A DNA stretch of 63,305 bases from positions 1-63,305 of the IMG/VR virus record IMGVR_UViG_3300048592_001022. One strand, 5' to 3'. Every line of letters starts with the position of its first letter. Positions within the stretch are counted from its first letter, which is position 1. The notes beneath the pieces are model-generated. The model was not told the DNA's origin. It saw nothing but the letters and a program-made list of their open reading frames with translations, and did not search any database. Both the position numbers and the translations under genes were made by a program. Below are positions 31,004-57,902 of the stretch, in pieces. Source of the stretch: a virus. Its lineage: Duplodnaviria > Caudoviricetes.

Positions 31004-31014
31004 AATTCCTCCGT

Positions 31015-31340: not shown

Positions 31341-31386
31341 TTGGTTTAAACCTGTTTTTGTTGAGATAATGTTAACTAATTTAATC

Positions 31387-31415
31387 TTTTCAAAGTTAAC
31401 GCGTTAGGTTAGAAT
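31387..31415 (+). promoter_or_regulatory. Promoter/operator site 4
   Basis: TTTTCA-17 nt-TAGAAT; AAGTTAACGCGTTAGGTT at 31393-31410. Confidence 0.65.
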
Positions 31416-31421
31416 TATATC

Positions 31422-31553
31422 AGTAATTGAGAGGAGGGACCTGACCATGAGCTACTAATCTATGCCGCTGAGACGGCATCAGCCATCTGAGTAAAGACCC
31501 GATGCGGTTGAATGCTCAAAAATAAGGGAAAACCGTGGCGGTCCGAGCGCCAC
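31422..31553 (+). ncRNA. Putative structured RNA B (copy 2)
   Basis: Hairpins UGCCG/CGGCA, GACC/GGUU within UGAG/CUCA, GUGGCG/CGCCAC; homologous to 29650-29783. Confidence 0.5.
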
Positions 31554-31558
31554 AAAAG

Positions 31559-31675
31559 AAAAAGAACGGATTCCCCCGCCCATTAGGGTCCGCGTGAGAC
31601 TTGCTACTCACATGCCCGTCCAGGTATTTCCTGAACACAAATACATTTCTAAGTTAACGCGTTAACTTTGTAAAG
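31559..31675 (-). repeat. 117-bp inverted repeat, right copy (promoter/operator site 5 plus RNA A copy 2)
   Basis: Reverse complement of 29531-29647; palindrome at 31651-31668. Confidence 0.95.
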
Positions 31676-31730
31676 GTGAATTTTATAGGAAAATAGCGAG
31701 GAATAGCGGCGAATAGCGCCGCTATATTGA

Positions 31731-32540: not shown

Positions 32541-33310
32541 TCCCCCACTCCGATAGCGAAAACATTCCCGAGAACCTTGGCTTTAAGCCGATATTTTTCA
32601 GCAATGCGCTCCACAATCTTCCCGCAGAAATGGGGCTCGATCTCGACACCAAGCGCCACCCGTCCGGTCTCCTGTGCGGCCGCGAAGATCACCCCAGACC
32701 CTGCAAAGGGGTCGTAAACGACGTCGCCGGCATCGGTATGATTGAGAATCGGACGCGTATAAAGGTCGATCGGCTTCTGCGTGGGATGGATCCTTTCGGA
32801 AGGCTTGGGGACCTCGGCCTGCCAGACAGTGGTCTGCCTCCGGTCTCCCTTCCAGTTTGCGGTTTCACCGAAGCGAACGCCGTAGATACAGCTTTCGTGC
32901 TGCCAGTGATAGGCAGAGCGGGAAAGCGCTGCGCGGTTCTTTGCCCAGATGATGAGCTGCCGCGGCTCGTAGTCGCCGTCGCGTGCCGCCTGGAGAGCCA
33001 CATCAGTGGCAGTCGCGGCGTGCCAGATATAGGCGATCTTGGCTTGTGAGAGATAGAATGCCCGGGACCATGATGCCCGGTGGTCATTTCGGATCCTAAG
33101 ATCCTCCAGGGTGTTCCCCTTGGCAATCGTGGTCGACGGTTCCTTGCGGTCCCTGACCTTGAAATTCACGCCGTAAGGCGGATCCGTAATCATGAGGGTG
33201 GGCAGCTGCTCGCCGAAGAGCGGCGCGAGCATCGCCCGTTCTGAGCTGTCGCCGCACAAGAGCCTATGCTGGCCAATTTGAATGAGATCCCCAAAAACAA
33301 TTTTCATCAA
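32537..33310 (-). CDS. N6A/N4C DNA methyltransferase (beta class)
   Basis: HRLLCGDS, TDPPYG, HPTQKP, DPFAGSG motifs. Confidence 0.93.
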   Translation of the reverse strand: MMKIVFGDLIQIGQHRLLCGDSSERAMLAPLFGEQLPTLMITDPPYGVNFKVRDRKEPSTTIAKGNTLEDLRIRNDHRASWSRAFYLSQAKIAYIWHAATATDVALQAARDGDYEPRQLIIWAKNRAALSRSAYHWQHESCIYGVRFGETANWKGDRRQTTVWQAEVPKPSERIHPTQKPIDLYTRPILNHTDAGDVVYDPFAGSGVIFAAAQETGRVALGVEIEPHFCGKIVERIAEKYRLKAKVLGNVFAIGVGE

Positions 33311-41911: not shown

Positions 41912-42499
41912 TTAGAACTTATAGGCAACAAAGAGCGAGTAGTCGCTGCGTTCCTGCGTCACGTCACGAACCTTGTAAGCACTGTCTTCCTTGGCTGCCA
42001 TGTCTCCGGATACCAGTGTTTTACTGAAAAGATACTCAGCACCCAGATCAACATTGCTTGCCACTGCAAACGATGCACCAGCACCCAGGTCAGCATTTAC
42101 GAGCAATGCTGGCTTGAAGGTTTCCTGGCCGTATTGGTGAAGACTTACGCCGCCTTTCCCGTAAAGCGAGAAGTTGTCCTGCTTCATAAGATCGAATGCC
42201 GCATACGCGCCAAGCGCCGTGTCGAAAGCCTTGGTATTGTAGCGCTCGAACTCAGCATAGGAGAGGCCCACACCAAGGCGCGAGCGGTCGCTCAACGCGA
42301 ACTCGAGGTCCACACCTGCACCCTTGCCAGGAACAGTCAGCTTGTTGCCGTCGACGTCATCAGCATCCTCTTCATATCCAACATTCTTGGCATCCAGCTT
42401 CAGCTGGCTTTGAGTAAGCTTGGGCTTGATCACCAGCCCCTCAGCCATGGCGGAAGTTGCGGCGAATGCAAGAGTGAGGGCGAGAGTGTTGCGAACCAT
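41912..42499 (-). CDS. Outer-membrane beta-barrel protein (OmpA/Ail/Lom-like)
   Basis: Signal peptide, alternating beta strands, terminal VAYKF. Confidence 0.88.
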   Translation of the reverse strand: MVRNTLALTLAFAATSAMAEGLVIKPKLTQSQLKLDAKNVGYEEDADDVDGNKLTVPGKGAGVDLEFALSDRSRLGVGLSYAEFERYNTKAFDTALGAYAAFDLMKQDNFSLYGKGGVSLHQYGQETFKPALLVNADLGAGASFAVASNVDLGAEYLFSKTLVSGDMAAKEDSAYKVRDVTQERSDYSLFVAYKF

Positions 42500-42665: not shown

Positions 42666-42908
42666 TCAAGAGGCCGGTGTGTATCCTATCAGGATTTCCA
42701 TCTCGGGCTGCTCGCGCAGAATCAATGGAACCACTTGATCGCGTGGAAGCACCTTACCTAGTCTGGCGGCTACTTCCACGCCTGGCCTTCGCCCCAGCAG
42801 TATCGCGGAGATGGTGTTCTTTGGAACTCCCGTCAGCCGCGAAAGCTCTGCTGCAGAGCGATTCGTGGACCCATTTAACCATTGCTGGATCAGATCTGCA
42901 AGAGACAT
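42666..42908 (-). CDS. HTH-only paralogue of the XRE/DUF4423-like regulators
   Basis: LIQQWL...ELSRLTGV...LLG.R aligns by eye with N-termini of 51507 and 53440 proteins. Confidence 0.7.
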   Translation of the reverse strand: MSLADLIQQWLNGSTNRSAAELSRLTGVPKNTISAILLGRRPGVEVAARLGKVLPRDQVVPLILREQPEMEILIGYTPAS

Positions 42909-42922
42909 CGTCAAGCCTCCAA

Positions 42923-43522
42923 TCAAGATTTTTTCCGCAGAATAACCGTCCTCTTTGTCTTCGCCCGATTCACTGATCTATCATTGTCGGTCTTCAGTTT
43001 CGACGAGATCGAAATGCATCGCTGCGCTTTCATCTTGCACTTTTTCTCGGCTTTTGCTTCCAGTAATGCCCGTGCCAGCTCATAGTCCGCGCGAACGGCC
43101 CGCTTCTCAAAGTCGGTCGAAAATTTTGCCGAAGGGTCCTTGGCCTTCTGCCAGATTCTCCCAAAATAGACTCGCTGAAACTCCCGCAGTGCCGACCGGC
43201 GATCGCGGAACGCTGGATGCCGGGTGACCTGGCGGTAAAGGGTCTCAGGGTTTCGCAGCTGCTCACGGGGAATCTTCGCAGCAGCGTGACAGAACGCTAT
43301 GGCCCATTCCCGGTGGATCCGCTTGGGGTCTCTCAGGAGAATCAGAAGCTCGTCGAACACCCAGCGTCCGTGAATCTCGCGGAGCGTGAGAACGTCCATG
43401 GGCGAAAGCCGGACAAAGGGGAGATAACCCATGGCTTTCGCTTCCTGCGTGTATTCGTCACGCTCACGAGCGGGTGCCTTGTAGCTGCGTATTGCACGAG
43501 CGGATTGCATTGCCAATTTCAT
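42923..43522 (-). CDS. Basic hypothetical protein
   Basis: 199 aa; GGAGGG RBS. Confidence 0.65.
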   Translation of the reverse strand: MKLAMQSARAIRSYKAPARERDEYTQEAKAMGYLPFVRLSPMDVLTLREIHGRWVFDELLILLRDPKRIHREWAIAFCHAAAKIPREQLRNPETLYRQVTRHPAFRDRRSALREFQRVYFGRIWQKAKDPSAKFSTDFEKRAVRADYELARALLEAKAEKKCKMKAQRCISISSKLKTDNDRSVNRAKTKRTVILRKKS

Positions 43523-43740
43523 CCCTCCCAGATCATTCAGTTGCTTTTTTCATCCAGCTGCGGATATTTCGATGTGCCAGGGGATCTAACCCGAGCGACT
43601 GATAACCGGCTTTCCGAGCCGCTCTTAGCATAAGTCTTGGATTCGTTTTGCTTATCAGAAGCGCCTGAAGGTTATGGCTGCGAATGCGCGGTCGGTGAAA
43701 CTGGCTCCAACCCTTCCCCTTCAGGACAACTTCCAGTCAA

Positions 43741-43977
43741 TCAGTAAAGCTCAGTTTTGGAAGATGGTCCGCCACCACCCACAGTACCGAGAGAAAATGG
43801 GGCTCCACCACCGCCACTACCCCCCATTGGTCCACCGCCAACAACAGTACCAAGCGCTTGTTGGCCACTACCGCTCCGACTTACCGGCCCGCCGCCGCCT
43901 ATAATTCCAAGGGAGGGAGGCGACCCACTTGAGCCAATACCACCATCTTTAGCCGCCGTCATACACTCACGAACCAT
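43741..43977 (-). CDS. Gly/Pro motif-array micro-protein 1
   Basis: AGAGGAG RBS; GGIGSSGSPP, GIIGGGGP, GTVVGGGP, GGSGGGGAP, GTVGGGGP. Confidence 0.7.
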   Translation of the reverse strand: MVRECMTAAKDGGIGSSGSPPSLGIIGGGGPVSRSGSGQQALGTVVGGGPMGGSGGGGAPFSLGTVGGGGPSSKTELY

Positions 43978-44006
43978 CTGTTTCTCCTCTTATTGTGATC
44001 GCCTGG

Positions 44007-44303
44007 TCATGCCAGACGTTCGATCATATAGGTCACCTGAAAGTCGAGCGCGATCGAGTATAGCGTGATTTCCTCCGAATCCGAGCGCCGCACCTCGATC
44101 ACGCGATCCATGAACCGCGAGCGGGGAGTAGCATCGAGGATGCCTGCATATGCAATCGCAGCGTCTTCGGCTGTCGAAGCCTGCGACGGACTGATCCGAT
44201 ACCAATCCACCCGGCCTTCCTCGCGACAAAGGTAGTGAGGCGGGCAGGTGTGCTGTGCCGCCAGCAGCCAGCTTCCGCATTTTTTGCAAACATCCCGATG
44301 CAT
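44007..44303 (-). CDS. Hypothetical protein with N-terminal CxxC
   Basis: CKKCG...HTCPP; AGAGG RBS. Confidence 0.6.
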   Translation of the reverse strand: MHRDVCKKCGSWLLAAQHTCPPHYLCREEGRVDWYRISPSQASTAEDAAIAYAGILDATPRSRFMDRVIEVRRSDSEEITLYSIALDFQVTYMIERLA

Positions 44304-44318
44304 ACTTAGTTCCTCTCG

Positions 44319-44489
44319 TTATTCTTCGTCTTCTTCAGCTTCGTCATCGTCGCCCGTTGGGGGTCCACCACCGGAGCCACCGATTCCAGTAGGAACCGTC
44401 TTGGACGGTGGGCTTCCGCCAGATCCTCCCATTCCGCCGAAGTCATCGTCGCAAGGAGGCCCACCACCTGTTCCGCTGATTCCACTCAT
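44319..44489 (-). CDS. Gly/Pro motif-array micro-protein 2 (56 aa, not in ORF track)
   Basis: MSGISGTGGGPPCDDDFGGMGGSGGSPPSKTVPTGIGGSGGGPPTGDDDEAEEDEE; ATGA-coupled to upstream gene. Confidence 0.75.
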   Translation of the reverse strand: MSGISGTGGGPPCDDDFGGMGGSGGSPPSKTVPTGIGGSGGGPPTGDDDEAEEDEE

Positions 44490-45079
44490 TTCAGGTATTC
44501 CTCCCAGATGCTGATGATTTGGTGAACCTTGGCATACAGAGGTTTCACATCCGCACCAGCCATTTCAAGTTCGGCGATGTAGCAGCATTGTTCTGCCAGT
44601 TCTACCCAGTGAAATCTTCTGATCTGAAATAACTTCTCCACACGAAAAAGAGAGTGCCAAATTGCGCTTTGCGACTGTTCAATGCTTATGGTTCTGCCTT
44701 TCAATCGCTCTGCTCTCGGTTGGGTCCAGCACCTGAAAGCGTCCGACAGACTCAAGCAACCGCTGAATTCTTTCCGAATCCGCTCGCGGGCCGCTTCATC
44801 AAAATCGTAAGTGACCTCTACTTCGGGTAGGTCGATCGTTGTCATGGATGTCTGACCATCAGCGTCGAAAACGTATTCCATCGTTTTCGCTGACCATTGC
44901 TCCACATCAAGCAACTTGGCAACTTCAAGAACCGATGACATCCCTTCGCCGTTGGCGCTGATATTAAACAGCACTTTTCCGTCACTTGAACTGATCGTGG
45001 TAGGATAACGGAAAGGCTTCTCTAATTTTTTGACCACAGTATCCGAAGGAGGCCCTGTGTCAACGCCAAAATAACCCAT
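44486..45079 (-). CDS. Hypothetical protein (N-terminal GYFGVDTGPP)
   Basis: AGGAG RBS; operon context. Confidence 0.65.
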   Translation of the reverse strand: MGYFGVDTGPPSDTVVKKLEKPFRYPTTISSSDGKVLFNISANGEGMSSVLEVAKLLDVEQWSAKTMEYVFDADGQTSMTTIDLPEVEVTYDFDEAARERIRKEFSGCLSLSDAFRCWTQPRAERLKGRTISIEQSQSAIWHSLFRVEKLFQIRRFHWVELAEQCCYIAELEMAGADVKPLYAKVHQIISIWEEYLK

Positions 45080-45100
45080 ACATCAACTCCTGATTAAAGA

Positions 45101-45301
45101 TTAAGAATTGCCGCCAACCAGGTCGTTCACCTGGCTTGTGAAATCTGCCGCCATCTCCTTCGCTCTTTCCACGACTCCTTCGTCCACTGAATACAGCGGC
45201 GTTGGGTCATGCTTCTCAACGGATTCAGCGACATGGCTAGCCAACGCCTGAACGTCTTCCGTAGAAAATCCTCCTCCAATGTGGCCAGAACTTCCCATCA
45301 A
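45101..45301 (-). CDS. Small hypothetical protein (N-terminal GSSGHIGGG)
   Basis: GAGGAG RBS. Confidence 0.6.
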   Translation of the reverse strand: MMGSSGHIGGGFSTEDVQALASHVAESVEKHDPTPLYSVDEGVVERAKEMAADFTSQVNDLVGGNS

Positions 45302-45314
45302 CCAATCTCCTCAG

Positions 45315-47375
45315 TTAAAATTTTTCCAGAATATCGGCCAAAGCCGGAGGCAACGACACGGTGTTCATTGCCCGGGTAACTGCAACATATAGCAGGTTGA
45401 TCTCCTGCTCGGGGACTTCCTTACGAAGGCGCCCGTCCTTCTCCACAAGGCGCGATGCGAAGTCATCGCTCAGCTTCACGCTCGCCCACTCCAGGCCCTT
45501 TGCCTTATGGGCTGTCAGAATATGGATGGCTGCCGTCTTCCGCGCTTCCTTCGCGATCTCCATGAGGGCTTCCACAGCATCGCGGAATTTCTCGGCACCC
45601 ATCTTCTCAAGAAGCGAAATGGCCCGCATCGTATCCACGTCGCCGCGCAGGTCAGCCTCGTGCTTGAGGTCCCCGATCGAATCGAACCCGAAATACTGGG
45701 ATTCGCGATTGGTTATGGGCTGTTCCATCTTAAGGCGGTAAATGTCGAGCATCGATGCAAGGTATGTGTACGGCAGGCAGTCCGCGAAATAGATGTCCGC
45801 ACGTATATTGGCCAGGGCTTCCTGAAGAACACCGACATTCGAGCGGCAGAGAATGGCACGAGGACCCTCGGCCTTGCCGCCACCGATGCCAGTAAGCAGC
45901 GGGATGGAGCCGGACTTGAATTTCCATTTCTGGTAGCGGTATTTCAGAGCCAGTACGCGGTTCGCGAGGTCGGCCACATTCTGGCCAAAACGGAAACTTT
46001 GGGTCAAAGGCAGGAGCGGGATGCCCTGCTCGATCAGGGTCTCGATCGTATTGACCGCGCCCGTGAACTCATAGATGGATTGATGCTGGTCGCCGACGTA
46101 CACCTTCCGCATCTTCTGGCGCTGCACGATATCGAGAATCACGGGATTCGCATCTTGCGCTTCATCGAAGAGTATGGCGTCGAAGCCGCGAATCTCAGGG
46201 TGCGACAGCTGATACATCTTCAGATAGGTCGAATGCTCGAACGGCACCGTGCTGTCAAGATCAGCCTGCAGGCCAAAGAAGGCATCGGCATGCTCCTGCA
46301 GCTGGAGCAGGAATCGTCCAAGTTTTTCAGAAAGAAGCTCCGACTGATAGTAGGCGACCAGGACCTTGAGCGCAGTGGGATCAACCGAGCGGATCGTGGA
46401 AAGGACATTCCGACGGCGATCGCGTTCGATGGTCTCCAGGGTTGCCAGCATCTCGGGGTATCGGTCCTTGATCGACGGGTGCTTTTCCTCATAGAGAGCG
46501 ACCACCTTTTCAGCGTCCGCCTTGAGTCCATCCACGCCCTTCTGCGAAAGGATGAACGCCGCGGCCACGAGTTTTGCGATCCGGCCATCAGGCTTCACCG
46601 CGACCTTTTCATCCATCGATGACTCGAAATACTTCACAGCCTCCCGGAGAAGATCGACGTATTGCTTGTCGCTCACACCAGGGACCATCAAAGGGTCACC
46701 CGTAGTGTCGAAGATCTGCTTGAATAGTCGGCTGAAATCGTACTTGCCCATGTTCAGCTTGTGCTGATGGCGGCTGAGTCCGAGGTAGCGGAATGCCATC
46801 GAATGCGCCGTCATCACCTGGACGTTCGGCGGGAATTTCCCCTTCGCTTCGTCGGCGTTCTTCCGGTTGAAGCAGAGGTATAGAAAACGCTCCGAGGGAT
46901 AGGCCAGCGCCACAAGTATCAGCTCGGTGGTCTTTCCCGATCCAGCCGCGGCGCCCGAGATCAAATCACCCTGAGTTTCGCCGTAAGCTTTGATCAGCGC
47001 CATTTGCTCGTCGGTCGGTTTGAATGGCAGACGATCGAACTGCGGGATCAGCTTTTTCAGCTTCGCTTCCGCGCCGGCACGGGCCGAAGCAGCTGGCGGC
47101 ATCGATGCCATCAGCGAAAACCCCTCATCCTCATCTCTGTCGTCGATAGGGATGAACAGTGGCTCAGGCTCTGCAAGGATGGCAGCTGGCGCTCTCGAGG
47201 CTGGCTTCGGGCCAATGCTGCGATCGTTGATGATCCGCATCGCCTCGGGAACATTCTCCTCGGGCAGGATCCATTGTCCAAGAGCTGCATCGTATTGTCC
47301 GCCAAGATCTCTCAGCCAGTCCCGCACTTGATAGTGGCGCGTCCCGCCACCGACCTGAACCATTCCCATCAGCAC
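45315..47375 (-). CDS. UvrD-like SF1 helicase
   Basis: AAAGSGKT, DEAQD, VGDQHQSIY.F, SFRFG, HKAKGLEW, YVAVTRA motifs. Confidence 0.93.
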   Translation of the reverse strand: MLMGMVQVGGGTRHYQVRDWLRDLGGQYDAALGQWILPEENVPEAMRIINDRSIGPKPASRAPAAILAEPEPLFIPIDDRDEDEGFSLMASMPPAASARAGAEAKLKKLIPQFDRLPFKPTDEQMALIKAYGETQGDLISGAAAGSGKTTELILVALAYPSERFLYLCFNRKNADEAKGKFPPNVQVMTAHSMAFRYLGLSRHQHKLNMGKYDFSRLFKQIFDTTGDPLMVPGVSDKQYVDLLREAVKYFESSMDEKVAVKPDGRIAKLVAAAFILSQKGVDGLKADAEKVVALYEEKHPSIKDRYPEMLATLETIERDRRRNVLSTIRSVDPTALKVLVAYYQSELLSEKLGRFLLQLQEHADAFFGLQADLDSTVPFEHSTYLKMYQLSHPEIRGFDAILFDEAQDANPVILDIVQRQKMRKVYVGDQHQSIYEFTGAVNTIETLIEQGIPLLPLTQSFRFGQNVADLANRVLALKYRYQKWKFKSGSIPLLTGIGGGKAEGPRAILCRSNVGVLQEALANIRADIYFADCLPYTYLASMLDIYRLKMEQPITNRESQYFGFDSIGDLKHEADLRGDVDTMRAISLLEKMGAEKFRDAVEALMEIAKEARKTAAIHILTAHKAKGLEWASVKLSDDFASRLVEKDGRLRKEVPEQEINLLYVAVTRAMNTVSLPPALADILEKF

Positions 47376-47395
47376 TACGCTCCCATTATTTGGGG

Positions 47396-47671
47396 TTAAA
47401 CAACTTCTGCCTGTGCATTATCGTTGAATGCTCGCACGAACTCGCCGCCGTGGAGTCCATACAGCATGTAAGCACGCTGTATTTTCGATCTGCTGTATCC
47501 GGTGGCCTTGTGATCGCCGTCATGCAGGACCCAGGCTCGCTGAACAGTCATGTGACAGACGACTCCGCGCCGACCGTTAATCTCAATTATGTCGCCTTTT
47601 TTGATGGTGCTATTCAGCAACTTCGGCCTCCCCAATTGGATCAGCAGATACGATGCGAAACTTTGAGGCAC
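47396..47671 (-). CDS. Hypothetical protein (start uncertain)
   Basis: Fills the operon gap. Confidence 0.45.
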   Translation of the reverse strand: MPQSFASYLLIQLGRPKLLNSTIKKGDIIEINGRRGVVCHMTVQRAWVLHDGDHKATGYSRSKIQRAYMLYGLHGGEFVRAFNDNAQAEVV

Positions 47672-47927
47672 GCCTCTTGGGTTTGATGCCGAGACGGTCG
47701 AGATGCTTATAAATACAGGCTCGATTCATGTTCATTCTCCGGCTTGCCTCGGAAATATTCCCGTTTACCTGTGCAAGAACCTGCTCAAGGTAAGCAGCCA
47801 GCAGCTTTTCTCGCTGCTCCTTCCACGGCAGGAGTGGTCCTTCAAAGCGAAAGGGTTTCATTTCCAAAGTGGCTTCCTGCATTACGTCCGAATTCTCATA
47901 TACTGACAAGGTTTGCTGGTCTTTCAT
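47610..47927 (-). CDS. Fis-family HTH protein
   Basis: YLEQVLAQVNGNISEASRRMNMNR...LDRLGI. Confidence 0.8.
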   Translation of the reverse strand: MKDQQTLSVYENSDVMQEATLEMKPFRFEGPLLPWKEQREKLLAAYLEQVLAQVNGNISEASRRMNMNRACIYKHLDRLGIKPKRRASKFRIVSADPIGEAEVAE

Positions 47928-48283
47928 TTCGTGTTTTTCTCCGCAAGGGATAATGGATCAAATGTTTGATGCTGGATCACATACAGCAACTCGCGCGAAA
48001 CAAGGTATGCCTGGGCCTTGCCGCGATTCGCTATCGACACCACTTCGCCTTTGCCACGCTCGAATGTAGTGGCCGCCCGTGGGTCGCGATACCGGGAAAA
48101 TTGCTCAGTTTCCACGAAAAGCGTTCCACGGTATTCCGTGTGGTCGATCAGATCCCGCTCCGTTGCCGTCAGGAACTCTGGGTCCGCCTTGCCGGTCGTT
48201 CCGATCAGGAGCACCAGTAGCAGCACAAAAAGCACGCAGCTTCGGAACATGATAGCGCTGAAACTTTCCTCTTCAAATTGCAC
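47924..48283 (-). CDS. Hypothetical exported/membrane protein
   Basis: N-terminal hydrophobic helix. Confidence 0.55.
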   Translation of the reverse strand: MQFEEESFSAIMFRSCVLFVLLLVLLIGTTGKADPEFLTATERDLIDHTEYRGTLFVETEQFSRYRDPRAATTFERGKGEVVSIANRGKAQAYLVSRELLYVIQHQTFDPLSLAEKNTK

Positions 48284-48530
48284 CTTTGACTCCTCTCCGC
48301 GATGCGCGGCGCATAAACATCCGCTCGTAATTCATGATCGCCCTGCGGCAATGCTTCTGGGCGTCTTCCACAGTTTCGTGCTTCATGGCTTCGATGTGCT
48401 CCAAGGCAGCCCAAAGACTCGGGCTTTCTTTCTGCATGAGAGGCCATTCTTCGTCGGCGATCTGGTAGTACTGGATCAGGCGTTTGACGTGCTTTATGGT
48501 CGCTTCGATCGTGGTTTCAATGGTTGCCAT
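48273..48530 (-). CDS. Hypothetical protein
   Basis: Overlapping operon context. Confidence 0.55.
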   Translation of the reverse strand: MATIETTIEATIKHVKRLIQYYQIADEEWPLMQKESPSLWAALEHIEAMKHETVEDAQKHCRRAIMNYERMFMRRASRRGVKGAI

Positions 48531-50916
48531 TGATCACTCCTTCGACAGCTTCGCGGCCAAATTTATTGCACATTTCTGCATGAAACAGGCTGTCATCGGC
48601 GATCGCCATGAACCTTGCGTCGATTTCAAAACGAAGGTGGAAGTTAGGCTCGTGCTTCGCCAAAAGTCGCCGCAGCGCACGTTTGAGCAGATCACGGTTG
48701 AGTGGCAGCGTGCCGTCGCCGGCAGCAGGCTCTTTCGGACTAGGTGCAGGTGCGACTACCACCGGGGCGAGCTCACCGGAGTCGAGCCAGGGAAGAGCGG
48801 GAATGTCCGCTTTTCTAAGAATTCCGAGGGCGTCCAGCTCCGCTTGTGCGGAATCGACCAGGGACTGGTTGCAGTATTCCTTTTTCGAGAAGTAGCGCAG
48901 CATCGGCAGCATTCGGCCTGGCGCTTTCTTCCACAGGGCATCCAGAGTTTCGCGCTGCGACTTCCGCGCTTTGGCGTAGACCCGGGCCACCAGCCATTGC
49001 TGACGGTCAGGATCGGTGGGCAGGTGATCCTCCGGCTTTTTCTCTTCGGTCGGGACACGCGCCTCAGGCAGCGACTCGAAGCCCAAAATCGCGGCCTGGC
49101 TCACGGGTTCGGCTTCGACTGGTACCGAAGGGAGGATTTCAAGAACCGGCGGTTGTGAGGCCGTTTCCGTTGAATAGGAGTGGCGCGCCGTTTTTTCGCA
49201 CTCAAGAGCCGGATTTTGGCTTTCGGATTCCTTGGTGGAAGCAATAGCGACTTCGTCGTGAGACCGTTCCGAGGTAACGGATAGTTTTTCCTTCTCCCAG
49301 GCTGCTTCGAGTGCATTGAACGATTCTTGCCTAACCGAGATTCGATAGCCTGAGAATCTCTGGTCTATGAATTTGCAGAATGCGTCAGTTTCATCAAACG
49401 CTTTCTCAACACAGCCAAAGGCTGCCGCCTTTCTTTCCGTAAAATCGGAAATCCACACCACCAGCCGATATACGTACACATTGCCTTTTCGATCCCTGAA
49501 AGCCTCTTGGACGTAGTCATTGACGAGATGGGTGATGTCCGTCGAGTACCCCCCGTTCGGCTTGTAGATCCGCCTCGCCTTCGACAACCGAGGCACCATC
49601 ATCAGCTCGGCTTTTTGATTCAAATCAGGAATGTTGTTGTTAGGGATGTTCTCGTTATGAATGTTCTCAGAGTCGGGAACCTCTTGAAAGCCGCACACGG
49701 TTTGAGATCCGGGAAAAGTTCCCGCTACCAAACTTGACCCTGTGCAGTTCCAAACTTTACCCTGTGTGCTACCATTTTTGACCGTCTGTGGCTTCCGATT
49801 TTTACCCTCTGTCGTTACCAATTTTAACCCTGTGTCGTTACCATTTTTTACCCTCTGTCGCTTCCAAACTTGACCCTCTGTAGCACTGCCGGTCTTTTTG
49901 CTGCGGCGAATATAGTTAATATTTTCAGGGTTGTGCAGAATTGATGCCGGCGGCGCTGGAAGGTCTGAGCAGTTATCGAAAGCCCATAATGCCGGATCAA
50001 CGATGTGGTAAGACCGTTCAAGTCGTGGACTGAACTTTGTATGACGGTAGTCTTTGAAAACCACCATCGAGCATTCCTCCAAAAGACGAAGGCTACTCAG
50101 AACTGTCGGCTTCGACAGATCCAACGCCTTCCCGATATGCTCTGCGGTTGGGTGCCATGTCTGACGCAATGACGCGAGGTACATCCAAACGCGGCGCGCG
50201 CTGCAACACAGTTCGATCTTGCTGACGTAGCGTGGCACTTTGAAGTAGCTGCCAGAGAATGACTTCGCGTACTCGTCGATACGCCCATCCTCGGGAGGAG
50301 TGGCGAGCCGGCGGGGCACCCAGGTACTCGGATCAGTAGCCCCGGGCTTATATGATTGGTTTCGGAATCCCTCGATCTTCCAGAAGCTCGGGCTGGCGAT
50401 ATGCCAAATCTCCTTTGATCGGCCACCTGAGATCTCCAGGAGGTCGAAGAAAAGAATATGGCGGCGAACAAGTGATTCCAGGGCGGCTTTCATATCCTTG
50501 AAGGACACTCGTGCGCGTGCGCGAAGCTGTTTCCGGTTTAAATGTTCGTCCGGACAAAGCATCAGCATCGTGAGCAGCACGTTCATTTCCCGGGCAGGAA
50601 GCTTCGCGGTAATGATCTCATTGATAATCGGCGCCCAGTTCTTGCGAAGCCGTGTGTGCTCGCGAACCCTTAATATGGAGAGAACCCGGTTATTTGCTTT
50701 TGGTAAAATACGGCTTTTCGGTGACCATCTCTGAAGATCGGTATTCGACACCTGGCTGAACAACATTTCAAATGGCTGGCCAGACAATAACTTCGTTGCA
50801 GCACTCACGCACACACTCCTGCGAAGCCTTGGGTACCAAGACTCACGCGATTTTATTTTTTTTAGATTCAGAAAAGTGTGAGGGCCAGGCGACACCAGGA
50901 GCACTTTGTTAACCAA
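48517..50916 (-). CDS. Putative phage replication initiator (two wHTH repeats, lambda-O-like internal iterons); start uncertain
   Basis: Two HTH-like repeats (..KAALESLVRRHIL / ..SSLRLLEECSMV..P..W), followed by an iteron-encoded linker. Confidence 0.6.
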   Translation of the reverse strand: MVNKVLLVSPGPHTFLNLKKIKSRESWYPRLRRSVCVSAATKLLSGQPFEMLFSQVSNTDLQRWSPKSRILPKANNRVLSILRVREHTRLRKNWAPIINEIITAKLPAREMNVLLTMLMLCPDEHLNRKQLRARARVSFKDMKAALESLVRRHILFFDLLEISGGRSKEIWHIASPSFWKIEGFRNQSYKPGATDPSTWVPRRLATPPEDGRIDEYAKSFSGSYFKVPRYVSKIELCCSARRVWMYLASLRQTWHPTAEHIGKALDLSKPTVLSSLRLLEECSMVVFKDYRHTKFSPRLERSYHIVDPALWAFDNCSDLPAPPASILHNPENINYIRRSKKTGSATEGQVWKRQRVKNGNDTGLKLVTTEGKNRKPQTVKNGSTQGKVWNCTGSSLVAGTFPGSQTVCGFQEVPDSENIHNENIPNNNIPDLNQKAELMMVPRLSKARRIYKPNGGYSTDITHLVNDYVQEAFRDRKGNVYVYRLVVWISDFTERKAAAFGCVEKAFDETDAFCKFIDQRFSGYRISVRQESFNALEAAWEKEKLSVTSERSHDEVAIASTKESESQNPALECEKTARHSYSTETASQPPVLEILPSVPVEAEPVSQAAILGFESLPEARVPTEEKKPEDHLPTDPDRQQWLVARVYAKARKSQRETLDALWKKAPGRMLPMLRYFSKKEYCNQSLVDSAQAELDALGILRKADIPALPWLDSGELAPVVVAPAPSPKEPAAGDGTLPLNRDLLKRALRRLLAKHEPNFHLRFEIDARFMAIADDSLFHAEMCNKFGREAVEGVINGNH
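49733..49885. repeat. About seven degenerate ~23-bp tandem repeats (iteron-like), consensus ~TTACCCT(C/G)TGTCGTTACCAnTTT
   Basis: Periodic ACCCT(C/G)TGT cores separated by T-runs inside the rep gene. Confidence 0.8.
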
Positions 50917-51506
50917 GATGGATAACAGTAATCTCTTGGCGCACCCAATCGGAGTATCACTGTGAAGGTGAGGTCAAGAGGCTGAAAACGATAAATTTCG
51001 GGGTAATGGGAAAAGAATGTTGGGGGATGTGTATCATGAAGTACTCCGATCCTGTTCGTCGCGAAGAAACCAGCACGAATAATCAAGTTCTTTCGCGAAG
51101 TTCGCAGTTGACCGGCGTGGGTGTGGTGCTATAAATTCAAAACAAAGCACAAAACCATGCCGGTTTGGGACTAAGTCCCTTATTGGTAGCCAGCCCCTCA
51201 GAACCGTAGTCGACCAAAACAAGGGTTCTGTTGGGTGTGCTTCTTTTTTATAGCCGCAACCTCACCAAAAATGCAAGCGCAACCTCCGCTTTTTTCCTCA
51301 ATTTTTCAGCCAATTTAAGGCGCTCCTGAAGACCGAGAGAACGTCGAGGCATCTCTGTTTATGCACGTAAAATGCATGTAAAATGCTCATACCGTTCATA
51401 ACGACCGATCTTCGGAAGCGGTTTGGTATTGCGGTTGCTAAATCCATTGACTAGTCTGAGCTTGGAAAGCCGAAAACCTATTTCACATCTACTCAAGGCC
51501 GGTGGA

Positions 51507-52217
51507 ATGATAAATAAAGACATCGATTACGGTCAGTTATGCGCAAAATTTATTCAGATGTGGCTGGACGAGGCTCCAGAAAACACCATAGTGGAACTAA
51601 GCAGACGCACAAAAATCGTAGAATCTTGGTTGAGGAAACTCCAAAAAGGCAATCGCCAGTCCACTCTCGACACTCTGTACCGAATCATATCAGTTTGGCC
51701 TGTTAATCGCGTCAAAGAAATCCTCTTAATGAATACTCCTAACGGAGCATCGGTGATCACCGAGCTAGAAAAAGTGGGGGTCGTTTTTACTGATCTGGAG
51801 ATCACCGACTTCAGAGAAGCTGCTTTGGTGGCTAGAATTGTTGCCAAAGAACGACTGACTAGATCAGAGATTGATCTAATTCTAGGGACTGAACATAGCG
51901 CGAGGGCGATAGAAAAATTCCAAGAGTTCGACCTCCTCACAAAAGACGGGGATGAACATTACTGTTTGAGCCATAAATTTCAGGAAATTCGGTCGCACCA
52001 AGCTCTGAAAATGCTAGCTAGATTGATTGTTGAATGCCATAGTGCAGTAGTCGGAAATCTTTGGGAGACTCGAATCCAAGGTTTGAACGATGAAGGAGTT
52101 GATGCGGTTTACCAACTGATCGGCCACTTTCAACTCGAACTCTCGAAAATCCTTACCAACCCTAAGTTTCACGGCCAACGAGTTTTTGGTGTCACACTGA
52201 ACTCGGCTTTTATCTGA
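51507..52217 (+). CDS. XRE-HTH + DUF4423/TIGR02147-like regulator 1
   Basis: N-terminal HTH, central wHTH, C-terminal RIQGLNDEG...F..EL..IL..PK..G..VFG; paralogous to 52715-53440. Confidence 0.65.
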   Translation: MINKDIDYGQLCAKFIQMWLDEAPENTIVELSRRTKIVESWLRKLQKGNRQSTLDTLYRIISVWPVNRVKEILLMNTPNGASVITELEKVGVVFTDLEITDFREAALVARIVAKERLTRSEIDLILGTEHSARAIEKFQEFDLLTKDGDEHYCLSHKFQEIRSHQALKMLARLIVECHSAVVGNLWETRIQGLNDEGVDAVYQLIGHFQLELSKILTNPKFHGQRVFGVTLNSAFI

Positions 52218-52229
52218 ACAGGAGCTTCT

Positions 52230-52682
52230 ATGAAGATTTGGACTATATTATCAGCAATTCTATTATCGTCTATAGCTGTCGCAGGTGGAATCGGCGGTGG
52301 AAGTCCTCCCCCAATGCTCGACTTGTCTCAAGCTGAACTCATGACACTGAAGACCGGAGCGTTAAACGGTGATGTTTTCCGCGTCACTCCAGAGCTGGGC
52401 GCAGACCCACTGTATATGATCCCCCAGCAAGCGACCATCAAATCAAACTCGCTGAGAGCGGCATCGTTGAATTCAGAAAGTTCTACTTTGTTCTATACGC
52501 CTTCGACGGTTGAAACAATGCAGAGCAAACTTAGTCTTTCAATCGCTCGCTCAATGGCTTTGCCTGGCATTCTTCCGGTCACAAGCGATGACTTAACTCC
52601 GAAATTCAGACCGAAGGTCGAGGTGGTTCCAGCTTCTACAATGGAAGAGGAACTTCAAGCACTGAAGACCACCGAAGAGTGA
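52230..52682 (+). CDS. Secreted protein with predicted mature N-terminus GGIGGGSPP
   Basis: MKIWTILSAILLSSIAVA signal peptide; AGGAG RBS; 12 nt after regulator 1. Confidence 0.75.
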   Translation: MKIWTILSAILLSSIAVAGGIGGGSPPPMLDLSQAELMTLKTGALNGDVFRVTPELGADPLYMIPQQATIKSNSLRAASLNSESSTLFYTPSTVETMQSKLSLSIARSMALPGILPVTSDDLTPKFRPKVEVVPASTMEEELQALKTTEE

Positions 52683-52692
52683 AGTAAAAACT

Positions 52693-52716
52693 AACCCGCT
52701 GAAAGGCGGGTTTTTT
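52693..52716 (+). terminator. Bidirectional intrinsic terminator
   Basis: AACCCGC-TGAAAG-GCGGGTT flanked by A- and T-runs between convergent genes. Confidence 0.8.
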
Positions 52717-53440
52717 ATTTTCTATTGAGGGAAGTCATCATTGCCATTGTAATGCTCTGCTCACCCTTATTTTTTGGATCAGATATCAACTCATTCATCG
52801 CTCTTTCTGTATCGCCAAACAATTTTTCAAGCTTTGCTATAGCCTGCTTATTCAATCCTTCAATCCTCAAGCAAGTAAAATTCCCCTGCTGATCCGCATT
52901 TTTGTGATCAAATAACTCCGATGCCCAGCCAATCCACCGAGTCACCCGATAAGGATCTGGAGAAAAATAATAGTCAGCTGCAAGCTTCACTATTCCTTCA
53001 GGATTCATCCAAAGTATGTTTGCATCAAAGAGATCATCCAGGGCATCAGAATCTCGGTTTCCAAGAGCATTTTTAAGCTCATCAATGTGTATTCCTGGAT
53101 CTGGACATGCCAAGGCCACTGCTAAAAACGCTTTTTTTGATCGTATAGGATCATGCTGAATAGCATCTGGCAGAAACTGAAAGGACCTCTCTATACTACG
53201 TCTTGTCTCTGGAAAAAATTCGTACAATCGCTTTTTAGCTTCATCCGGGTGCAAAAGTATCGCTGCCAACTGCAGAAAAGTCTGCATGTTTGCACCTTCT
53301 CCAGTTGCGATTCTTCGGACGGTGCTGTAACCGATTTTCGTGCGATTTGAGAGAACTAAAAGAGTATTCTTATGGCCTTTAGATTGCCACTCGGAAATTT
53401 TTTCTTTGAGGTAGACCCCGAGTTCCACTTTTTCGCCCAT
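52715..53440 (-). CDS. XRE-HTH + DUF4423/TIGR02147-like regulator 2
   Basis: LSNRTKIGYSTVRRIATG HTH; RIEGLNKQA...ELISDPKNKGE C-terminus. Confidence 0.65.
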   Translation of the reverse strand: MGEKVELGVYLKEKISEWQSKGHKNTLLVLSNRTKIGYSTVRRIATGEGANMQTFLQLAAILLHPDEAKKRLYEFFPETRRSIERSFQFLPDAIQHDPIRSKKAFLAVALACPDPGIHIDELKNALGNRDSDALDDLFDANILWMNPEGIVKLAADYYFSPDPYRVTRWIGWASELFDHKNADQQGNFTCLRIEGLNKQAIAKLEKLFGDTERAMNELISDPKNKGEQSITMAMMTSLNRK

Positions 53441-53644: not shown

Positions 53645-54064
53645 TCAAATATTTTTCTGAGAAAGGGGATTTAAAACCCTACCCCAACACTCAAAATCCT
53701 TGACGTTATCAGTAACTATAGTCAAATCGTTGCAAGCCGCTGAAGCACCAATCAAAAGGTCCTGAGCATGAAATGTCTTTCCAATTCGCAGCATTTCAGC
53801 ACGCTTTAAGGCTGCTTTGGATGATATTTCTCGCGTAACATCCAGCACTTTTATTGGCGCAACGGTGATGAACTTTTCCAGAGATGCCAGTGCTTTAGAC
53901 ATTCCAGCATGAATAAGACCACTTTCTATCTCGTAAAGCACAATAACGGAAGTACAAACATCCGGATTGTCTTTGAGCCACTGCTGACAAATTCGACCCT
54001 TTTCACCACGATTGAAGAGTCCAGAAAGAATGCATGAATCAACTAGATACATTTTCCACCTCAC
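53645..54064 (-). CDS. vapC: VapC/PIN-domain toxin
   Basis: YLVDSC, E, DLLIGASA, VTDNVKDF motifs. Confidence 0.9.
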   Translation of the reverse strand: MRWKMYLVDSCILSGLFNRGEKGRICQQWLKDNPDVCTSVIVLYEIESGLIHAGMSKALASLEKFITVAPIKVLDVTREISSKAALKRAEMLRIGKTFHAQDLLIGASAACNDLTIVTDNVKDFECWGRVLNPLSQKNI

Positions 54065-54375
54065 TCAACGTCATCGAATTCCATAATTGGCTTCGGTTGT
54101 CCGCGAGGTAGTAAAATCTCCCTCTCGCCGTCATGGCCATCCTCTTTTGCTGCTTCCTGCATTTCCAGAAAGAGTTCATCAAGTCGCGAATTGCGGGATT
54201 GGAATGCCATAGCTTGAAGTTGTTCGAGCATCGCAACCGGAATAACTGCGACTTCCCTTGGCTCTCGCGTTTTTCGATCGACAATTATTTGTGGTTCGTC
54301 AAACGCATCACTGATCAAATCGGAAATCCGATTTCGCGCCTCACTCACTGACCACTCTTTACGACCGGGCTTCAT
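54061..54375 (-). CDS. Phd/YefM-family antitoxin
   Basis: WSVSEARNRISDLI..A..EPQII. Confidence 0.85.
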   Translation of the reverse strand: MKPGRKEWSVSEARNRISDLISDAFDEPQIIVDRKTREPREVAVIPVAMLEQLQAMAFQSRNSRLDELFLEMQEAAKEDGHDGEREILLPRGQPKPIMEFDDVE

Positions 54376-54391
54376 GCCTGTCCCCCACAAA

Positions 54392-54438
54392 AGTACATAA
54401 GTACATCGGAACAAATGTACCAAAACATAAGTACATAA
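54392..54438. promoter_or_regulatory. Repeated AAGTACAT boxes (putative TA operator)
   Basis: Three AAGTACAT copies plus inverted ATGTAC upstream of the antitoxin start. Confidence 0.55.
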
Positions 54439-54671
54439 TCTACTAAAAACAGGTGATGCGCCGCCCAAAACTCAGCGAACCCTGAGCTTTTTCGATCAAA
54501 AAAATAGATATCAATGATTTCATTTGGTTATATCAGCGTACAGTAGCAGGAAAAATTCGTCCAAAAAACTAGTGATTTAAGATCGCTATTTGTAAGGCAA
54601 ATTTGGCTATTCCACAAATTCTTCAGATTTATCGCTCAAGTTTTATTAAATACAGCCGAAGAGGCTGATAT

Positions 54672-54701: not shown

Positions 54702-54752
54702 ACGGACTAGGGTAACATATAGGAGAGTCAGGTTTTGGGGGACGTTTTGATA

Positions 54753-55187
54753 ATGGCAGACTTTACCACCATGCGTTATCGCAGATTCCACCAGACCATA
54801 GCTGGCCTATGTGTTGACCGCAAAACGTTTGAAGCTGCCATAAAAGTCGATTGGCTGCATATCGACGAGAAAGCTGACAAAGAACAGATCCGGGCCAACC
54901 TCGGAAGCGAACAACTGGCATCAGTTCTAAAGAATGGCAGCTTAAATGTCGCTCAATGCCGTAATATCAGTGGATCGAGAGTTGAAATTGCAGTCGAGGG
55001 GTGCTTCAAAGCATTCCCATGGCTGGATTGGACAACAATGGAAGTCAACAGCTCCAATGATGTTTATGTGCGAGTTGTTATCAGGGAAAAGCGGGGAGCA
55101 GGTCTACATATTATCGTTACTGCATACGATCTTTGGACCCATAAAATCAACGCTGCAGTGAATGAGGTGCCCTATGAAATATGGTGA
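54753..55187 (+). CDS. Putative toxin upstream of MqsA-like antitoxin
   Basis: Toxin-first arrangement; C-terminal IIVTAY. Confidence 0.5.
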   Translation: MADFTTMRYRRFHQTIAGLCVDRKTFEAAIKVDWLHIDEKADKEQIRANLGSEQLASVLKNGSLNVAQCRNISGSRVEIAVEGCFKAFPWLDWTTMEVNSSNDVYVRVVIREKRGAGLHIIVTAYDLWTHKINAAVNEVPYEIW

Positions 55188-55725
55188 ATTTGATCAAATG
55201 CGATTGAATCGAAGCCTAAGCGATTTCCACAGCGATGATAACTGCCAAGGCAATTGGGAAATTAGCTTGCAGGAAAATGTTCCCTATCGTCTGGACTCAC
55301 ACATTGTACTTACAATTAAAAACGCACCATTCGTAAAATGCGACAGCTGTGGATCCACTTTTTTTGTTCCTGGCTTTGAGAATTGGCTAAAGCACCAAGT
55401 GGCTCTGGATATTTTAAAGCAGCAAGGTATGATGCCAAAGCCTGCAATTCGCTTTCTTCGAGTCTTGACAGGGAAGACTCAAAAGGAAATTGCTGATATT
55501 TTGGAGGTTCCGACTGATGAGTATAACAAGTTTGAATCAGTATCCAATACGACTCGACAGTTGAACCCTGATCGTCAGTCACGTTTGAAGGGAATTTTTG
55601 CTGATCTTCTCAACATTCAGGATGCTGAAGTTTACAGACGGGCGGTCTATATCCATGATGATGAAGTCGTAGCATTGCCCAAGACAATCCAAGCTGAATC
55701 GTTTCAACACATAATGGAAGCCTGA
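55174..55725 (+). CDS. MqsA-like Zn-ribbon + XRE HTH antitoxin
   Basis: H....C...IKNAP..KCDSCG; IRFLR...GKTQKEIA..L...YNKFES. Confidence 0.75.
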   Translation: MKYGEFDQMRLNRSLSDFHSDDNCQGNWEISLQENVPYRLDSHIVLTIKNAPFVKCDSCGSTFFVPGFENWLKHQVALDILKQQGMMPKPAIRFLRVLTGKTQKEIADILEVPTDEYNKFESVSNTTRQLNPDRQSRLKGIFADLLNIQDAEVYRRAVYIHDDEVVALPKTIQAESFQHIMEA

Positions 55726-56798: not shown

Positions 56799-57902
56799 CT
56801 ATTTTTTGGTGTTTTCAAGCTGCTTTTCAAGCTGTTCGCGATGAGCCCGTTCCCGCTCCGCTTGCCCTGATTTTTCCCCAACCTGCTTTTGGAGATCGCC
56901 AATCTGCTCGCGAAGACGGTCGACTTCGACCTTCAACTCGGTACGCAGCCGCGAAACTTCGGACGCTCGCTCCTCGGCTTGAGCCTGTGCCCGGGCAGCA
57001 TTCGAGCTTTCCAATGCCAGCCGTTCGGACGATTCCTTGAGTTGTCCGGTAAGCTGCAGAAGTTGATCGCCTGTTGACCTGGCTCGCGCATCAGATTCTG
57101 CTCTGGCATCACGCAACTCCTCGATGCGTTTTTCTGCCTGAGCTTTGTGGTCTTTAAGCTGGGTACGAAGATCCTCGATGGCTGCATACCTTTCGCCCGC
57201 CAGAGTGTTCGCGGCCTGCAGATCCCTTTCAAGGGTCGTATTCCGGTCAGTCAGGGCCTGTGCATGCTGTTCAGAGGATTCGAGACGCCGTGCGAGCCCG
57301 GTCGCGCTTTCTTCCCACTTGGCGGCTTCGCCCGATAGGTGCTGCACTTCTCCATTCAAAAGATCGATGCGGCTTGTCAGTGTCTCGATTTGCTTTTGCT
57401 GCGCATCCACGGTTCCTCGCGCATTTGCCAGATCCCTGCCCTGGCGTTCGATCTGCTCATCCTGGGCGCTGCGCTCTTCCTGGAGCTTGGCTATTTCGAT
57501 ATCCTTCGCCTTAACCACTGCTTCAAGGCGCTGAATTTCTCTACGCTGCTCAATCTCATCGCCCTCAGCCTCAGTCAATCTCTCTTGAGCCATTTCTTCC
57601 ACTCTGCGGATCCGGTCATTTGCCATTTGCGTGGCGCGTCCCCACAGGATGCCAGCCGCTTGGTTCAGAGCATTGCGCATTTCCTCCGGCAGATCGGTCG
57701 GCATTGAACTGACTGCAGGCTTCTTCTGGCGGCGCCACCGATTAAGAGAGGGACCAATGTATGAGTAGCTTCCGCCTTTCGCCTGGCGGATCAGTTCCTG
57801 GGTCGGTTTCTTCCCTTCAGCATCAAGAGAATCGGCCACAGGCCAGTAGATGGCATCGTATTTCCGCTCGTCTTCGCTCCGGTCATCCACCAAATCAATC
57901 AT
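56799..57902 (-). CDS. KfrA-like plasmid DNA-binding coiled-coil protein
   Basis: AD.L.AEG.KPT...IR...GGSYS.I...L..WR plus long coiled coil. Confidence 0.88.
   Translation of the reverse strand: MIDLVDDRSEDERKYDAIYWPVADSLDAEGKKPTQELIRQAKGGSYSYIGPSLNRWRRQKKPAVSSMPTDLPEEMRNALNQAAGILWGRATQMANDRIRRVEEMAQERLTEAEGDEIEQRREIQRLEAVVKAKDIEIAKLQEERSAQDEQIERQGRDLANARGTVDAQQKQIETLTSRIDLLNGEVQHLSGEAAKWEESATGLARRLESSEQHAQALTDRNTTLERDLQAANTLAGERYAAIEDLRTQLKDHKAQAEKRIEELRDARAESDARARSTGDQLLQLTGQLKESSERLALESSNAARAQAQAEERASEVSRLRTELKVEVDRLREQIGDLQKQVGEKSGQAERERAHREQLEKQLENTKK

Follow-up and report, generated by a model that had tools for sequence, protein, structure and literature searches.

A phage-borne copy of a paralogous regulator-exported protein module, together with leaderless arrays of its Gly-rich motif, suggests an undescribed signalling or decoy circuit

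Few paralogous families in predatory and related bacteria are as large as that of the TIGR02147/DUF4423 proteins, to which, to our knowledge, no function has been assigned. Here we analysed a stretch of phage DNA of 63,305 nt (the window), which is the whole of the virus record IMGVR_UViG_3300048592_001022, and we describe in it two regulators of a family that appears to be a remote relative of DUF4423, a small exported protein encoded directly downstream of one of them, and two leaderless proteins built of repeats of the Gly-rich motif found at the N-terminus of the exported protein. An intracellular regulator gene followed by the gene of a small exported protein is known from the RRNPP systems, for which the available part of PMC10075063 gives as criteria a receptor of 250-500 amino acids (aa) with tetratricopeptide repeats (TPR) that bind the peptide, a propeptide of 10-100 aa, Sec secretion and adjoining genes. 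For the DUF4423/TIGR02147 family itself, the available part of PMC12546842 lists the member Bd3700 as more abundant during growth of Bdellovibrio in prey. The searched literature did not otherwise mention DUF4423/TIGR02147 or describe a pairing of its regulators with partner genes, and it held no description of the regulator-exported protein module presented here (supplementary files of the cited papers were outside this search).

The phage holds one complete copy of a two-gene module, consisting of reg1 and the gene of the exported protein, hereafter the partner. It also holds an orphan regulator (reg2), a paralogue reduced to the helix-turn-helix (HTH) domain and two leaderless motif-repeat proteins, encoded by the open reading frames (ORFs) that we call micro-ORFs A and B.

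51507..52217, plus strand: reg1, XRE-type HTH and predicted winged-helix C-terminal domain; opens the cassette and is divergent from the early operon
52230..52682, plus strand: exported partner, 150 aa, starting 12 nt past the reg1 stop
52230-52283, plus strand: leader of the partner
52284-52313, plus strand: predicted mature N-terminus of the partner, GGIGGGSPPP, with an A-V-A site directly before the Gly run
52715..53440, minus strand: reg2, second regulator of the family, convergent and without a partner gene of its own
42666..42926, minus strand: HTH-only paralogue, 86 aa, start TTG at 42926, with an ATG at 42908
44319..44489, minus strand: micro-ORF A, 56 aa, three 16-residue motif units and an acidic tail, without leader
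43741..43977, minus strand: micro-ORF B, 78 aa, GGIGSSGSPP and three looser Gly-rich units, without leader

These ORFs, the secreted protein with GGIGGGSPPP behind its leader and the signal-less motif micro-proteins had been pointed out in a preliminary description of this DNA, and all of them are present. The regulators reg1 and reg2 are 236 and 241 aa long, and reg1 has an alternative TTG start at 51423. Searches of the regulators, the partner and the micro-ORFs against Pfam, NCBIfam and PHROG gave no match beyond HTH_3 in the 86-aa protein. The AlphaFold2 model of the partner had a pLDDT of 45 and was unusable.

Gene neighbourhoods show that in Oligoflexia the module is a large paralogous family in which a regulator is followed by a small protein with predicted Sec-type export, the two being often translationally coupled to judge from their overlaps. 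The regulator family is present in 57 of 131 Bdellovibrionota genomes, the largest of which carry 20 or more copies, and in Oligoflexus tunisiensis 19 full-length copies are spread across the 7.6-Mb chromosome. We examined 48 loci, namely all 19 copies of O. tunisiensis and one each from 29 other genomes, and called leader-bearing partner ORFs and AxA sites by a fixed heuristic of our own. A same-strand ORF with an N-terminal hydrophobic leader lies directly downstream of 46 of the 48 regulators, while the same heuristic was positive for 3 of 62 other ORFs of at least 200 aa in these loci. The 46 host partners are 87-223 aa long (median 111) and start between -28 and +33 nt from the regulator stop. 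The partner overlaps the regulator gene in 24 pairs, in 21 of them by exactly 4 nt, and this translational coupling suggests a fixed stoichiometry of regulator and partner. A 47th partner, in which the start is an internal ATG, was recovered by profile search and carries GGSSGGSGPP. The preliminary description had looked to co-occurrence of motif and regulator across genomes as the point on which it would stand or fall; the outcome was strongly positive, with 47 of 48 regulators paired. The reverse test pointed the same way: a profile of the PP-type partner subfamily found seven genes in O. tunisiensis, all seven abutting a family regulator, six of them already being part of the query alignment.

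Regulator and partner differ in how far they are conserved. In two orthologous clades the regulators have a mean identity of 69% and 64%, and the partners of 30% and 32%, with the partner regions beyond the motif aligning within subfamilies. The phage partner shows 39% identity (E 5e-29) to the protein encoded after one O. tunisiensis regulator (locus L012), and reg1 is 24% identical to that regulator over 240 aa.

The Gly-rich motif lies at one place in the partners. At least four Gly residues occur in the 8-residue window right after the leader in 23 of the 46 host partners, and at least three in 34, and no such Gly-rich window was found further on in any of the 46. The Gly run begins directly after an AxA-type (-3, -1) site in 22 of the 24 Gly-rich partners, counting that of the phage, and we therefore take the motif as the predicted mature N-terminus. 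In its fine structure, position 2-3 is hydrophobic, and a Gly run, a small residue and PP follow in this order. Sub-types of the motif, GG(x)GGG[ST]PP, GIIGVGG..NP and GQHTGVGGNP, track the regulator clades; since kin share labels, we claim no co-evolution. The motif is invariant in the first of the two orthologous clades (for example GIIGVGG). The DNA pattern coding for GGGxPP has 30 matches in the O. tunisiensis genome, of which only 5 stand behind a leader, and these 5 lie 22-27 residues past the start codon in partner genes directly downstream of a family regulator.

Within the window, a six-frame scan with PP-ending motif expressions matched only the secreted protein and micro-ORFs A and B. 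The shorter pattern GG[IVLM]GG gave one extra match, inside the helicase gene at 59880-59894. We also built a position-specific scoring matrix (PSSM) from six host partner N-termini, leaving out the phage sequence. Over the six frames it gave nine hits of at least 12 bits, eight of them within the secreted protein and micro-ORFs A and B. The top four scores were those of unit 1 (24.7) and unit 3 (22.5) of micro-ORF A, a unit of micro-ORF B (21.2) and the partner N-terminus (20.1), so that four hits reached 18 bits, compared with a mean of 0.02 in 100 first-order Markov simulations. The collagen-like fibre genes of the phage, Gly-rich as they are, obtained no PSSM score.

The paralogy of reg1, reg2 and the HTH-only protein, which the preliminary description had proposed, holds on the evidence of profile searches. 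With a family hidden Markov model (HMM) made of 64 homologues and none of the phage proteins, E-values were 4.5e-64 for reg2, 3.4e-30 for reg1 (HMM positions 10-238) and 4.5e-14 for the HTH-only protein, which matches the N-terminal part. The last is 27% identical to reg1 over 66 aa and matches Pfam HTH_3 (PF01381) with 27.5 bits at a cut-off of 23; HTH_3 was matched by 16 of 66 aligned family members, reg1 and reg2 themselves giving no match to it. A similar HTH-only relative occurs in O. tunisiensis as an 84-aa frame (L023, G001:C1:2037846-2038082; E 7.7e-7). Exhaustive phmmer with reg2 returned 72 representative homologues, nearly all of about 240 aa, and the nearest named members are hypothetical proteins of O. 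tunisiensis and of Oligoflexus metagenome-assembled genomes. In the family tree, reg2 is sister to a clade of the O. tunisiensis L005 type (UFBoot 100 / SH-aLRT 99). For reg1, a long branch makes the placement unsure.

The suggestion that these regulators are DUF4423-like stood in part. By profile-profile comparison the family is a remote branch, by descent, of the TIGR02147/DUF4423 superfamily: in hhalign, the 66-row alignment of the family and ten DUF4423 proteins of O. tunisiensis matched with 94.7% (E 5.7e-8) over 228 columns, end to end over both domains, and a structure search of the Atlas returned DUF4423/TIGR02147 clusters at a TM of about 0.5. The family lies outside the curated models. 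Neither reg1 nor reg2 matched DUF4423 (PF14394; gathering score 30 bits) in Pfam at E up to 1, or any NCBIfam family, TIGR02147 included, at E up to 1. No match to PF14394 was found across the whole record at E up to 10, nor at E 0.01 or better in any of the 66 family members. The AlphaFold2 model of reg2 has a pLDDT of 92. In this model, residues 1-90 resemble lambda/XRE repressors, superposing over about 90 residues, and residues 93-239 form an ArsR/MarR-type winged helix with extra helices, which matches 4g6q_B best (Z 9.5 over 138 aligned residues, root-mean-square deviation 5.2). TPR repeats were found neither by Pfam in reg1, reg2 and the 66 members nor in the reg2 model.

Canonical DUF4423 genes are present in 96 of the 131 genomes, in numbers reaching 25 or more, and they too appear to have exported neighbours, an association that also seems undescribed. 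In O. tunisiensis, 6 of 12 DUF4423 loci (L026, L028-L030, L032 and L034, assessed by eye) continue with lipoproteins that start C-G-x-x-x-G-N-[PS], so that the motif directly follows the lipobox Cys. In 30 loci of other genomes (L098-L127), exported proteins of the NGG[DE] or C-G-x-x-x-G-N-P type come after about 21 of 31 regulator ORFs, a count made by eye without a formal criterion. Some of these partners are exported proteins of about 300-370 aa with a GNGGD/NGGE motif. The preliminary description had suggested looking for leader-bearing GGxxGG(S/G)PP proteins in such neighbourhoods; exported Gly-motif proteins are indeed there, with motifs of the NGG[DE] or lipobox type. No NCBIfam family matched the partners, including those beside DUF4423 genes, and Pfam gave DUF4360 alone, in 2 of 15, both of them partners of DUF4423 genes.

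Micro-ORFs A and B lie about 8 kb from the cassette, inside the early operon, with a further small gene between them:

44007..44303, minus strand: Cys-rich (zinc-ribbon-like) ORF of 98 aa, which fixes the coding strand

The motifs of micro-ORF A are GISGTGGGPP, GGMGGSGGSPP and GIGGSGGGPP, and its PSSM scores are 24.7, 22.5 and 13.9. Its three 48-nt repeats are 67-77% identical as DNA, with the peptide motif kept. Translation of both micro-ORFs, on which the preliminary description depends, looks likely from their start contexts and from comparison with relatives. The ATG of micro-ORF A overlaps the stop of the upstream 197-aa ORF (ATGA) and has GGAGG upstream, and micro-ORF B has AGGAG 7 nt ahead of its ATG. 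Two contigs of 12.6 and 45.7 kb (runs X1 and X4), about 95% identical to the window over 43600-44382, keep both frames open, and micro-ORF A is shorter there by one 48-nt unit, in frame (window 44383-44430; two units versus three).

The substitution counts that follow are partial, with 40 of the 62 differences in the relative applied. In the Cys-rich ORF, 9 base changes lead to no residue change. In micro-ORF B, 20 base changes lead to 7 residue changes, none of them in the Gly-rich units, and in micro-ORF A 5 lead to 3. In the plus-strand Pro-rich shadow ORF, 25 base changes lead to 15 residue changes, and we rejected the plus-strand Pro-rich ORFs as real genes. From the counts on the two strands we conclude that minus is probably the coding strand and that the micro-ORFs are maintained. 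In the Gly/Pro stretches the third codon positions coincide on both strands, so that changes silent on one are silent on the other and do not discriminate; it is thus the linker, the neighbouring gene and the start contexts that support the choice of strand. We also rejected the idea that micro-ORF A mimics the C-terminal tail of SSB: the phage SSB keeps a hydrophobic tip, whereas micro-ORF A ends purely acidic.

The surroundings of the cassette are those of a tailed phage. The window encodes a lambda-type terminase, portal and major capsid proteins, a contractile tail and collagen-like fibres, and further a GH108 lysin, two DNA methylases, ArdA, ParA, ParB and a KfrA-like protein. A minus-strand early replication and recombination operon runs from about 50.9 kb down to 38 kb and contains genes for a DnaD-like 799-aa protein, a Fis-type HTH protein, UvrD helicase, exonuclease VIII, RecT, SSB and RusA. 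As the preliminary description had placed it, reg1 is divergent from this operon. The features that border the cassette are:

48517-50916, minus strand: gene of the DnaD-like 799-aa protein, start of the early operon
50917..51506, no strand assigned: candidate control region, intergenic, with the early operon on one side and reg1 on the other
52693..52712, no strand assigned: GC hairpin resembling a terminator, where the partner gene and reg2 converge

Hexamers resembling promoter elements and short repeats, one of them an 11-nt tandem repeat at 51361-51382, occur in the candidate control region, none of them above chance expectation. The TAAAATGC repeat upstream of reg1 gave 5 matches against 2.2 expected, which is not significant. 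The hairpin is called on both strands and has 8 pairs followed by a T-run on the plus strand (a consensus match only). Neither a tRNA nor an Rfam family was found in the window. The stretch at 51-56 kb is low in GC (0.44-0.49, compared with about 0.53 elsewhere).

The genes of a ParB-N protein, a ParA/MinD-type ATPase and a KfrA-like DNA-binding protein lie at 2556-4359 and 56799-57902. With ParA, ParB and KfrA genes present and no integrase found among the 46 window ORFs scanned, maintenance as a plasmid-like prophage is possible for this phage, and the prophage induction of which the preliminary description speaks may then refer to such a state.

Several neighbouring genes deserve mention in their own right. 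Directly adjoining reg2, at 53645-54468, is a VapBC-like pair made of a 139-aa PIN-domain protein and an upstream overlapping Phd/YefM-like ORF that scores below the Pfam cut-off. At 54735-55725 there are two overlapping plus-strand ORFs of 150 and 187 aa; by eye, the 187-aa ORF shows a CxxC pair and then an HTH-like stretch and recalls MqsA-type antitoxins, a likeness backed by no Pfam or PHROG match. Inside the early region, at 41912-42499, a leader-bearing outer-membrane beta-barrel protein of 195 aa (Pfam OMP_b-brl) fits a Lom/Ail-like accessory gene and is consistent with a Gram-negative host. Two neighbouring genes of about 400 aa with collagen triple-helix repeats (11965-14381) are probably tail fibres, and the ArdA antirestriction gene beside a C5-cytosine methylase and an N6/N4 methylase (30512-33310) forms an anti-defence cluster.

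On protein similarity alone, Oligoflexus-like bacteria are the likely hosts. Queries with reg2, the 197-aa ORF, the partner and the helicase found no related phages among viral contigs, and tblastn of INPHARED with reg2 gave no match. A metagenome scan with the helicase yielded two near-identical contigs of about 1.2 kb, which end just before micro-ORF A. Word-index protein searches gave only one or two close relatives per query, and the sequencing runs covered only small shares of the window, runs X8 and X9 in short pieces only.

How might these parts work together? We tentatively propose that the regulator reads the motif of its partner in the cytoplasm and that the micro-proteins act as decoys or antirepressors. 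The C-terminal domain of the regulator would recognise the Gly-rich N-terminal segment of the partner when this is cytoplasmic, either in a precursor that is not yet exported or in a fragment taken up again, and the operon would thereby report the export or the extracellular level of the partner. With reg1 and the partner placed at the divergent early promoter, the pair could serve as an immunity or decision module. As products of the early operon, the micro-proteins would flood the cytoplasm with the motif, of which they have about seven copies, and would thereby occupy the phage's own regulators, the approximately 20 host paralogues, or both.

A number of points weigh against this proposal. 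The regulators, being without leader or membrane segment, are cytoplasmic, while the motif is exported, and neither an importer nor a processing enzyme was identified. Many paralogues of one genome share the motif, whereas private signal-receptor pairs would need the opposite. In the reg2 model the C-terminal domain is an ArsR/MarR-like winged helix and not a known peptide-binding fold. The partners, at 87-223 aa and with alignable downstream regions, may have functions of their own. The orphan reg2 has no partner gene, and in a 16-row regulator clade the partners have no Gly-rich N-terminus by our criterion and carry an internal ENGG instead. For the micro-ORFs, no homologue was detectable, micro-ORF B giving no match in five host genomes and micro-ORF A no usable hit in the Atlas, and both the partial substitution counts and the ambiguity of the Gly/Pro stretches belong on this side. 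Finally, we infer from sequence both the binding of the motif by the regulator and the decoy role of the arrays.

The strongest rival takes the Gly-rich segment as an envelope tether or as a tag for a peptidase or for a sorting or modifying system that would read it once the partner is exported. The regulator would then only autoregulate and sense something else, and the micro-proteins would be unrelated, their likeness being one of low complexity. We consider this possible, if somewhat unlikely. A generic tag fits better than private signals with a motif shared by so many paralogues, and the position of the motif, exactly at the predicted signal-peptidase site in 22 of the 24 Gly-rich partners and directly after the lipobox Cys in the lipoprotein partners of DUF4423, is where a sorting or maturation tag would lie. 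Conservation of the partners beyond the motif and the fact that we only infer regulator-motif binding also speak for it. However, this rival leaves unexplained why a phage that carries the cassette should encode leaderless arrays of the same fine structure, and copies in the cytoplasm could not meet a reader on the envelope side. A mere likeness of low complexity is difficult to reconcile with arrays that outrank all else in 63 kb while the collagen-like genes score nothing, and the translational coupling in 21 of 46 pairs suggests a fixed stoichiometry of regulator and partner.

A second rival turns the micro-proteins from decoys into agonists. They would be leaderless multi-copy precursors, freed at lysis and cut outside the cell into motif peptides, which neighbouring lysogens or host circuits would sense in an arbitrium-like manner. 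The 3-4 units per protein and the change of unit number between relatives recall the intragenic duplications reported for RRNPP propeptides in the available part of PMC10075063, and the encoding of the micro-ORFs in the early lytic operon also speaks for this rival. Nevertheless, we hold it to be quite unlikely: no uptake route is known, flanking cleavage sites are not evident and the acidic tail of micro-ORF A would have no role, and the binding it requires is just as conjectural as in our own proposal. It is very improbable that the micro-ORFs are no genes, but chance frames over G-rich repeats or the shadows of real plus-strand Pro-rich frames, as their shortness, low complexity, want of homologues, overlap with plus-strand ORFs of 103 and 88 aa and coinciding third codon positions might suggest, since the minus-strand operon around them is tightly packed and shows AGGAG/GGAGG contexts and an ATGA overlap, both frames remain open in the relative, whose 48-nt change is in frame, the shadow ORF has 15 residue changes in 25 base changes against 0 in 9 and 7 in 20 for minus-strand genes, and the repeats have drifted to 67-77% identity as DNA while the peptide motif was kept.

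Returning to the proposal of a regulator that reads its partner's motif, the module can be set beside three known systems. The nearest by descent, as far as profiles can tell, is DUF4423/TIGR02147 of Bdellovibrionota, Fibrobacter and Myxococcota. In both families an N-terminal HTH precedes a C-terminal domain of some 160 aa, paralogues have multiplied greatly in the same genomes, and exported Gly-motif proteins are encoded downstream. They differ in that the present family falls below the Pfam and NCBIfam models, that the loci of the two are distinct in O. tunisiensis, and that the present partners have 87-223 aa, compared with roughly 170-490 aa for those of DUF4423. A sister family of DUF4423 is almost always coupled to a small exported protein whose N-terminal motif is conserved while the rest diverges, and a phage has captured the cassette and also encodes leaderless, presumably cytoplasmic, arrays of the motif. 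The pairing and the arrays give a first concrete, testable hypothesis for the whole TIGR02147/DUF4423 superfamily, and together they suggest an undescribed signalling or decoy circuit.

The second comparison is with CI/Cro-type XRE repressors and their antirepressors, such as Rep-Ant of a Salmonella phage (PDB 5d50). Here the modelled N-terminal domain superposes on the lambda, 186 and XRE repressors, the position divergent from the early operon is the same, and the small early proteins are candidate inactivators of a repressor. Unlike these systems, the present one has an additional winged-helix domain, a coupled exported partner and a chromosomal family of about 20 copies, and its micro-proteins have no sequence relation to any known antirepressor.

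In the way it would work, the module is most like the RRNPP cassettes, including arbitrium, by analogy of gene order and export. As far as the available part of PMC10075063 describes them, Rap-Phr, PlcR-PapR and AimR-AimP share with it the intracellular HTH regulator gene followed by the gene of a small exported protein (Sec-exported by prediction in the present module), the many paralogous cassettes per genome, carriage by phages at the lysis-lysogeny region and changes of repeat number in the peptide-coding part. Measured against the criteria given there, the genes adjoin, with a gap of 12 nt in the phage and of -28 to +33 nt in the 46 host pairs, and Sec secretion is predicted, our own heuristic finding hydrophobic leaders in 46 of 48 cases and AxA-type sites in 22 of 24. 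The module departs from the TPR and size features of the same source. It has no TPR, its sensor part being a predicted winged helix, the receptor of 236-241 aa is below the range of 250-500, and the partner of 150 aa (host median 111) is above the usual 10-100. The conserved part here is the mature N-terminus, whereas in RRNPP the peptide is C-terminal and variable, and the likely host phylum of the present module is Gram-negative.

A wider reading, which we offer as speculation and consider unlikely as it stands, is that the TIGR02147 superfamily, comprising the present family and DUF4423 and numbering hundreds of copies across Bdellovibrionota, is a Gram-negative counterpart of RRNPP without TPR. 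Its regulators would be intracellular receptors for the Gly-rich N-terminus of the co-translated partner, and the phage would use its cassette for the choice between lysis and maintenance, with the arrays jamming or triggering about 20 host circuits. Should it be true that the regulators read the motif, a Gram-negative phylum would possess a receptor-signal architecture whose fold is unrelated to that of RRNPP and for which a phage encodes a mimic.

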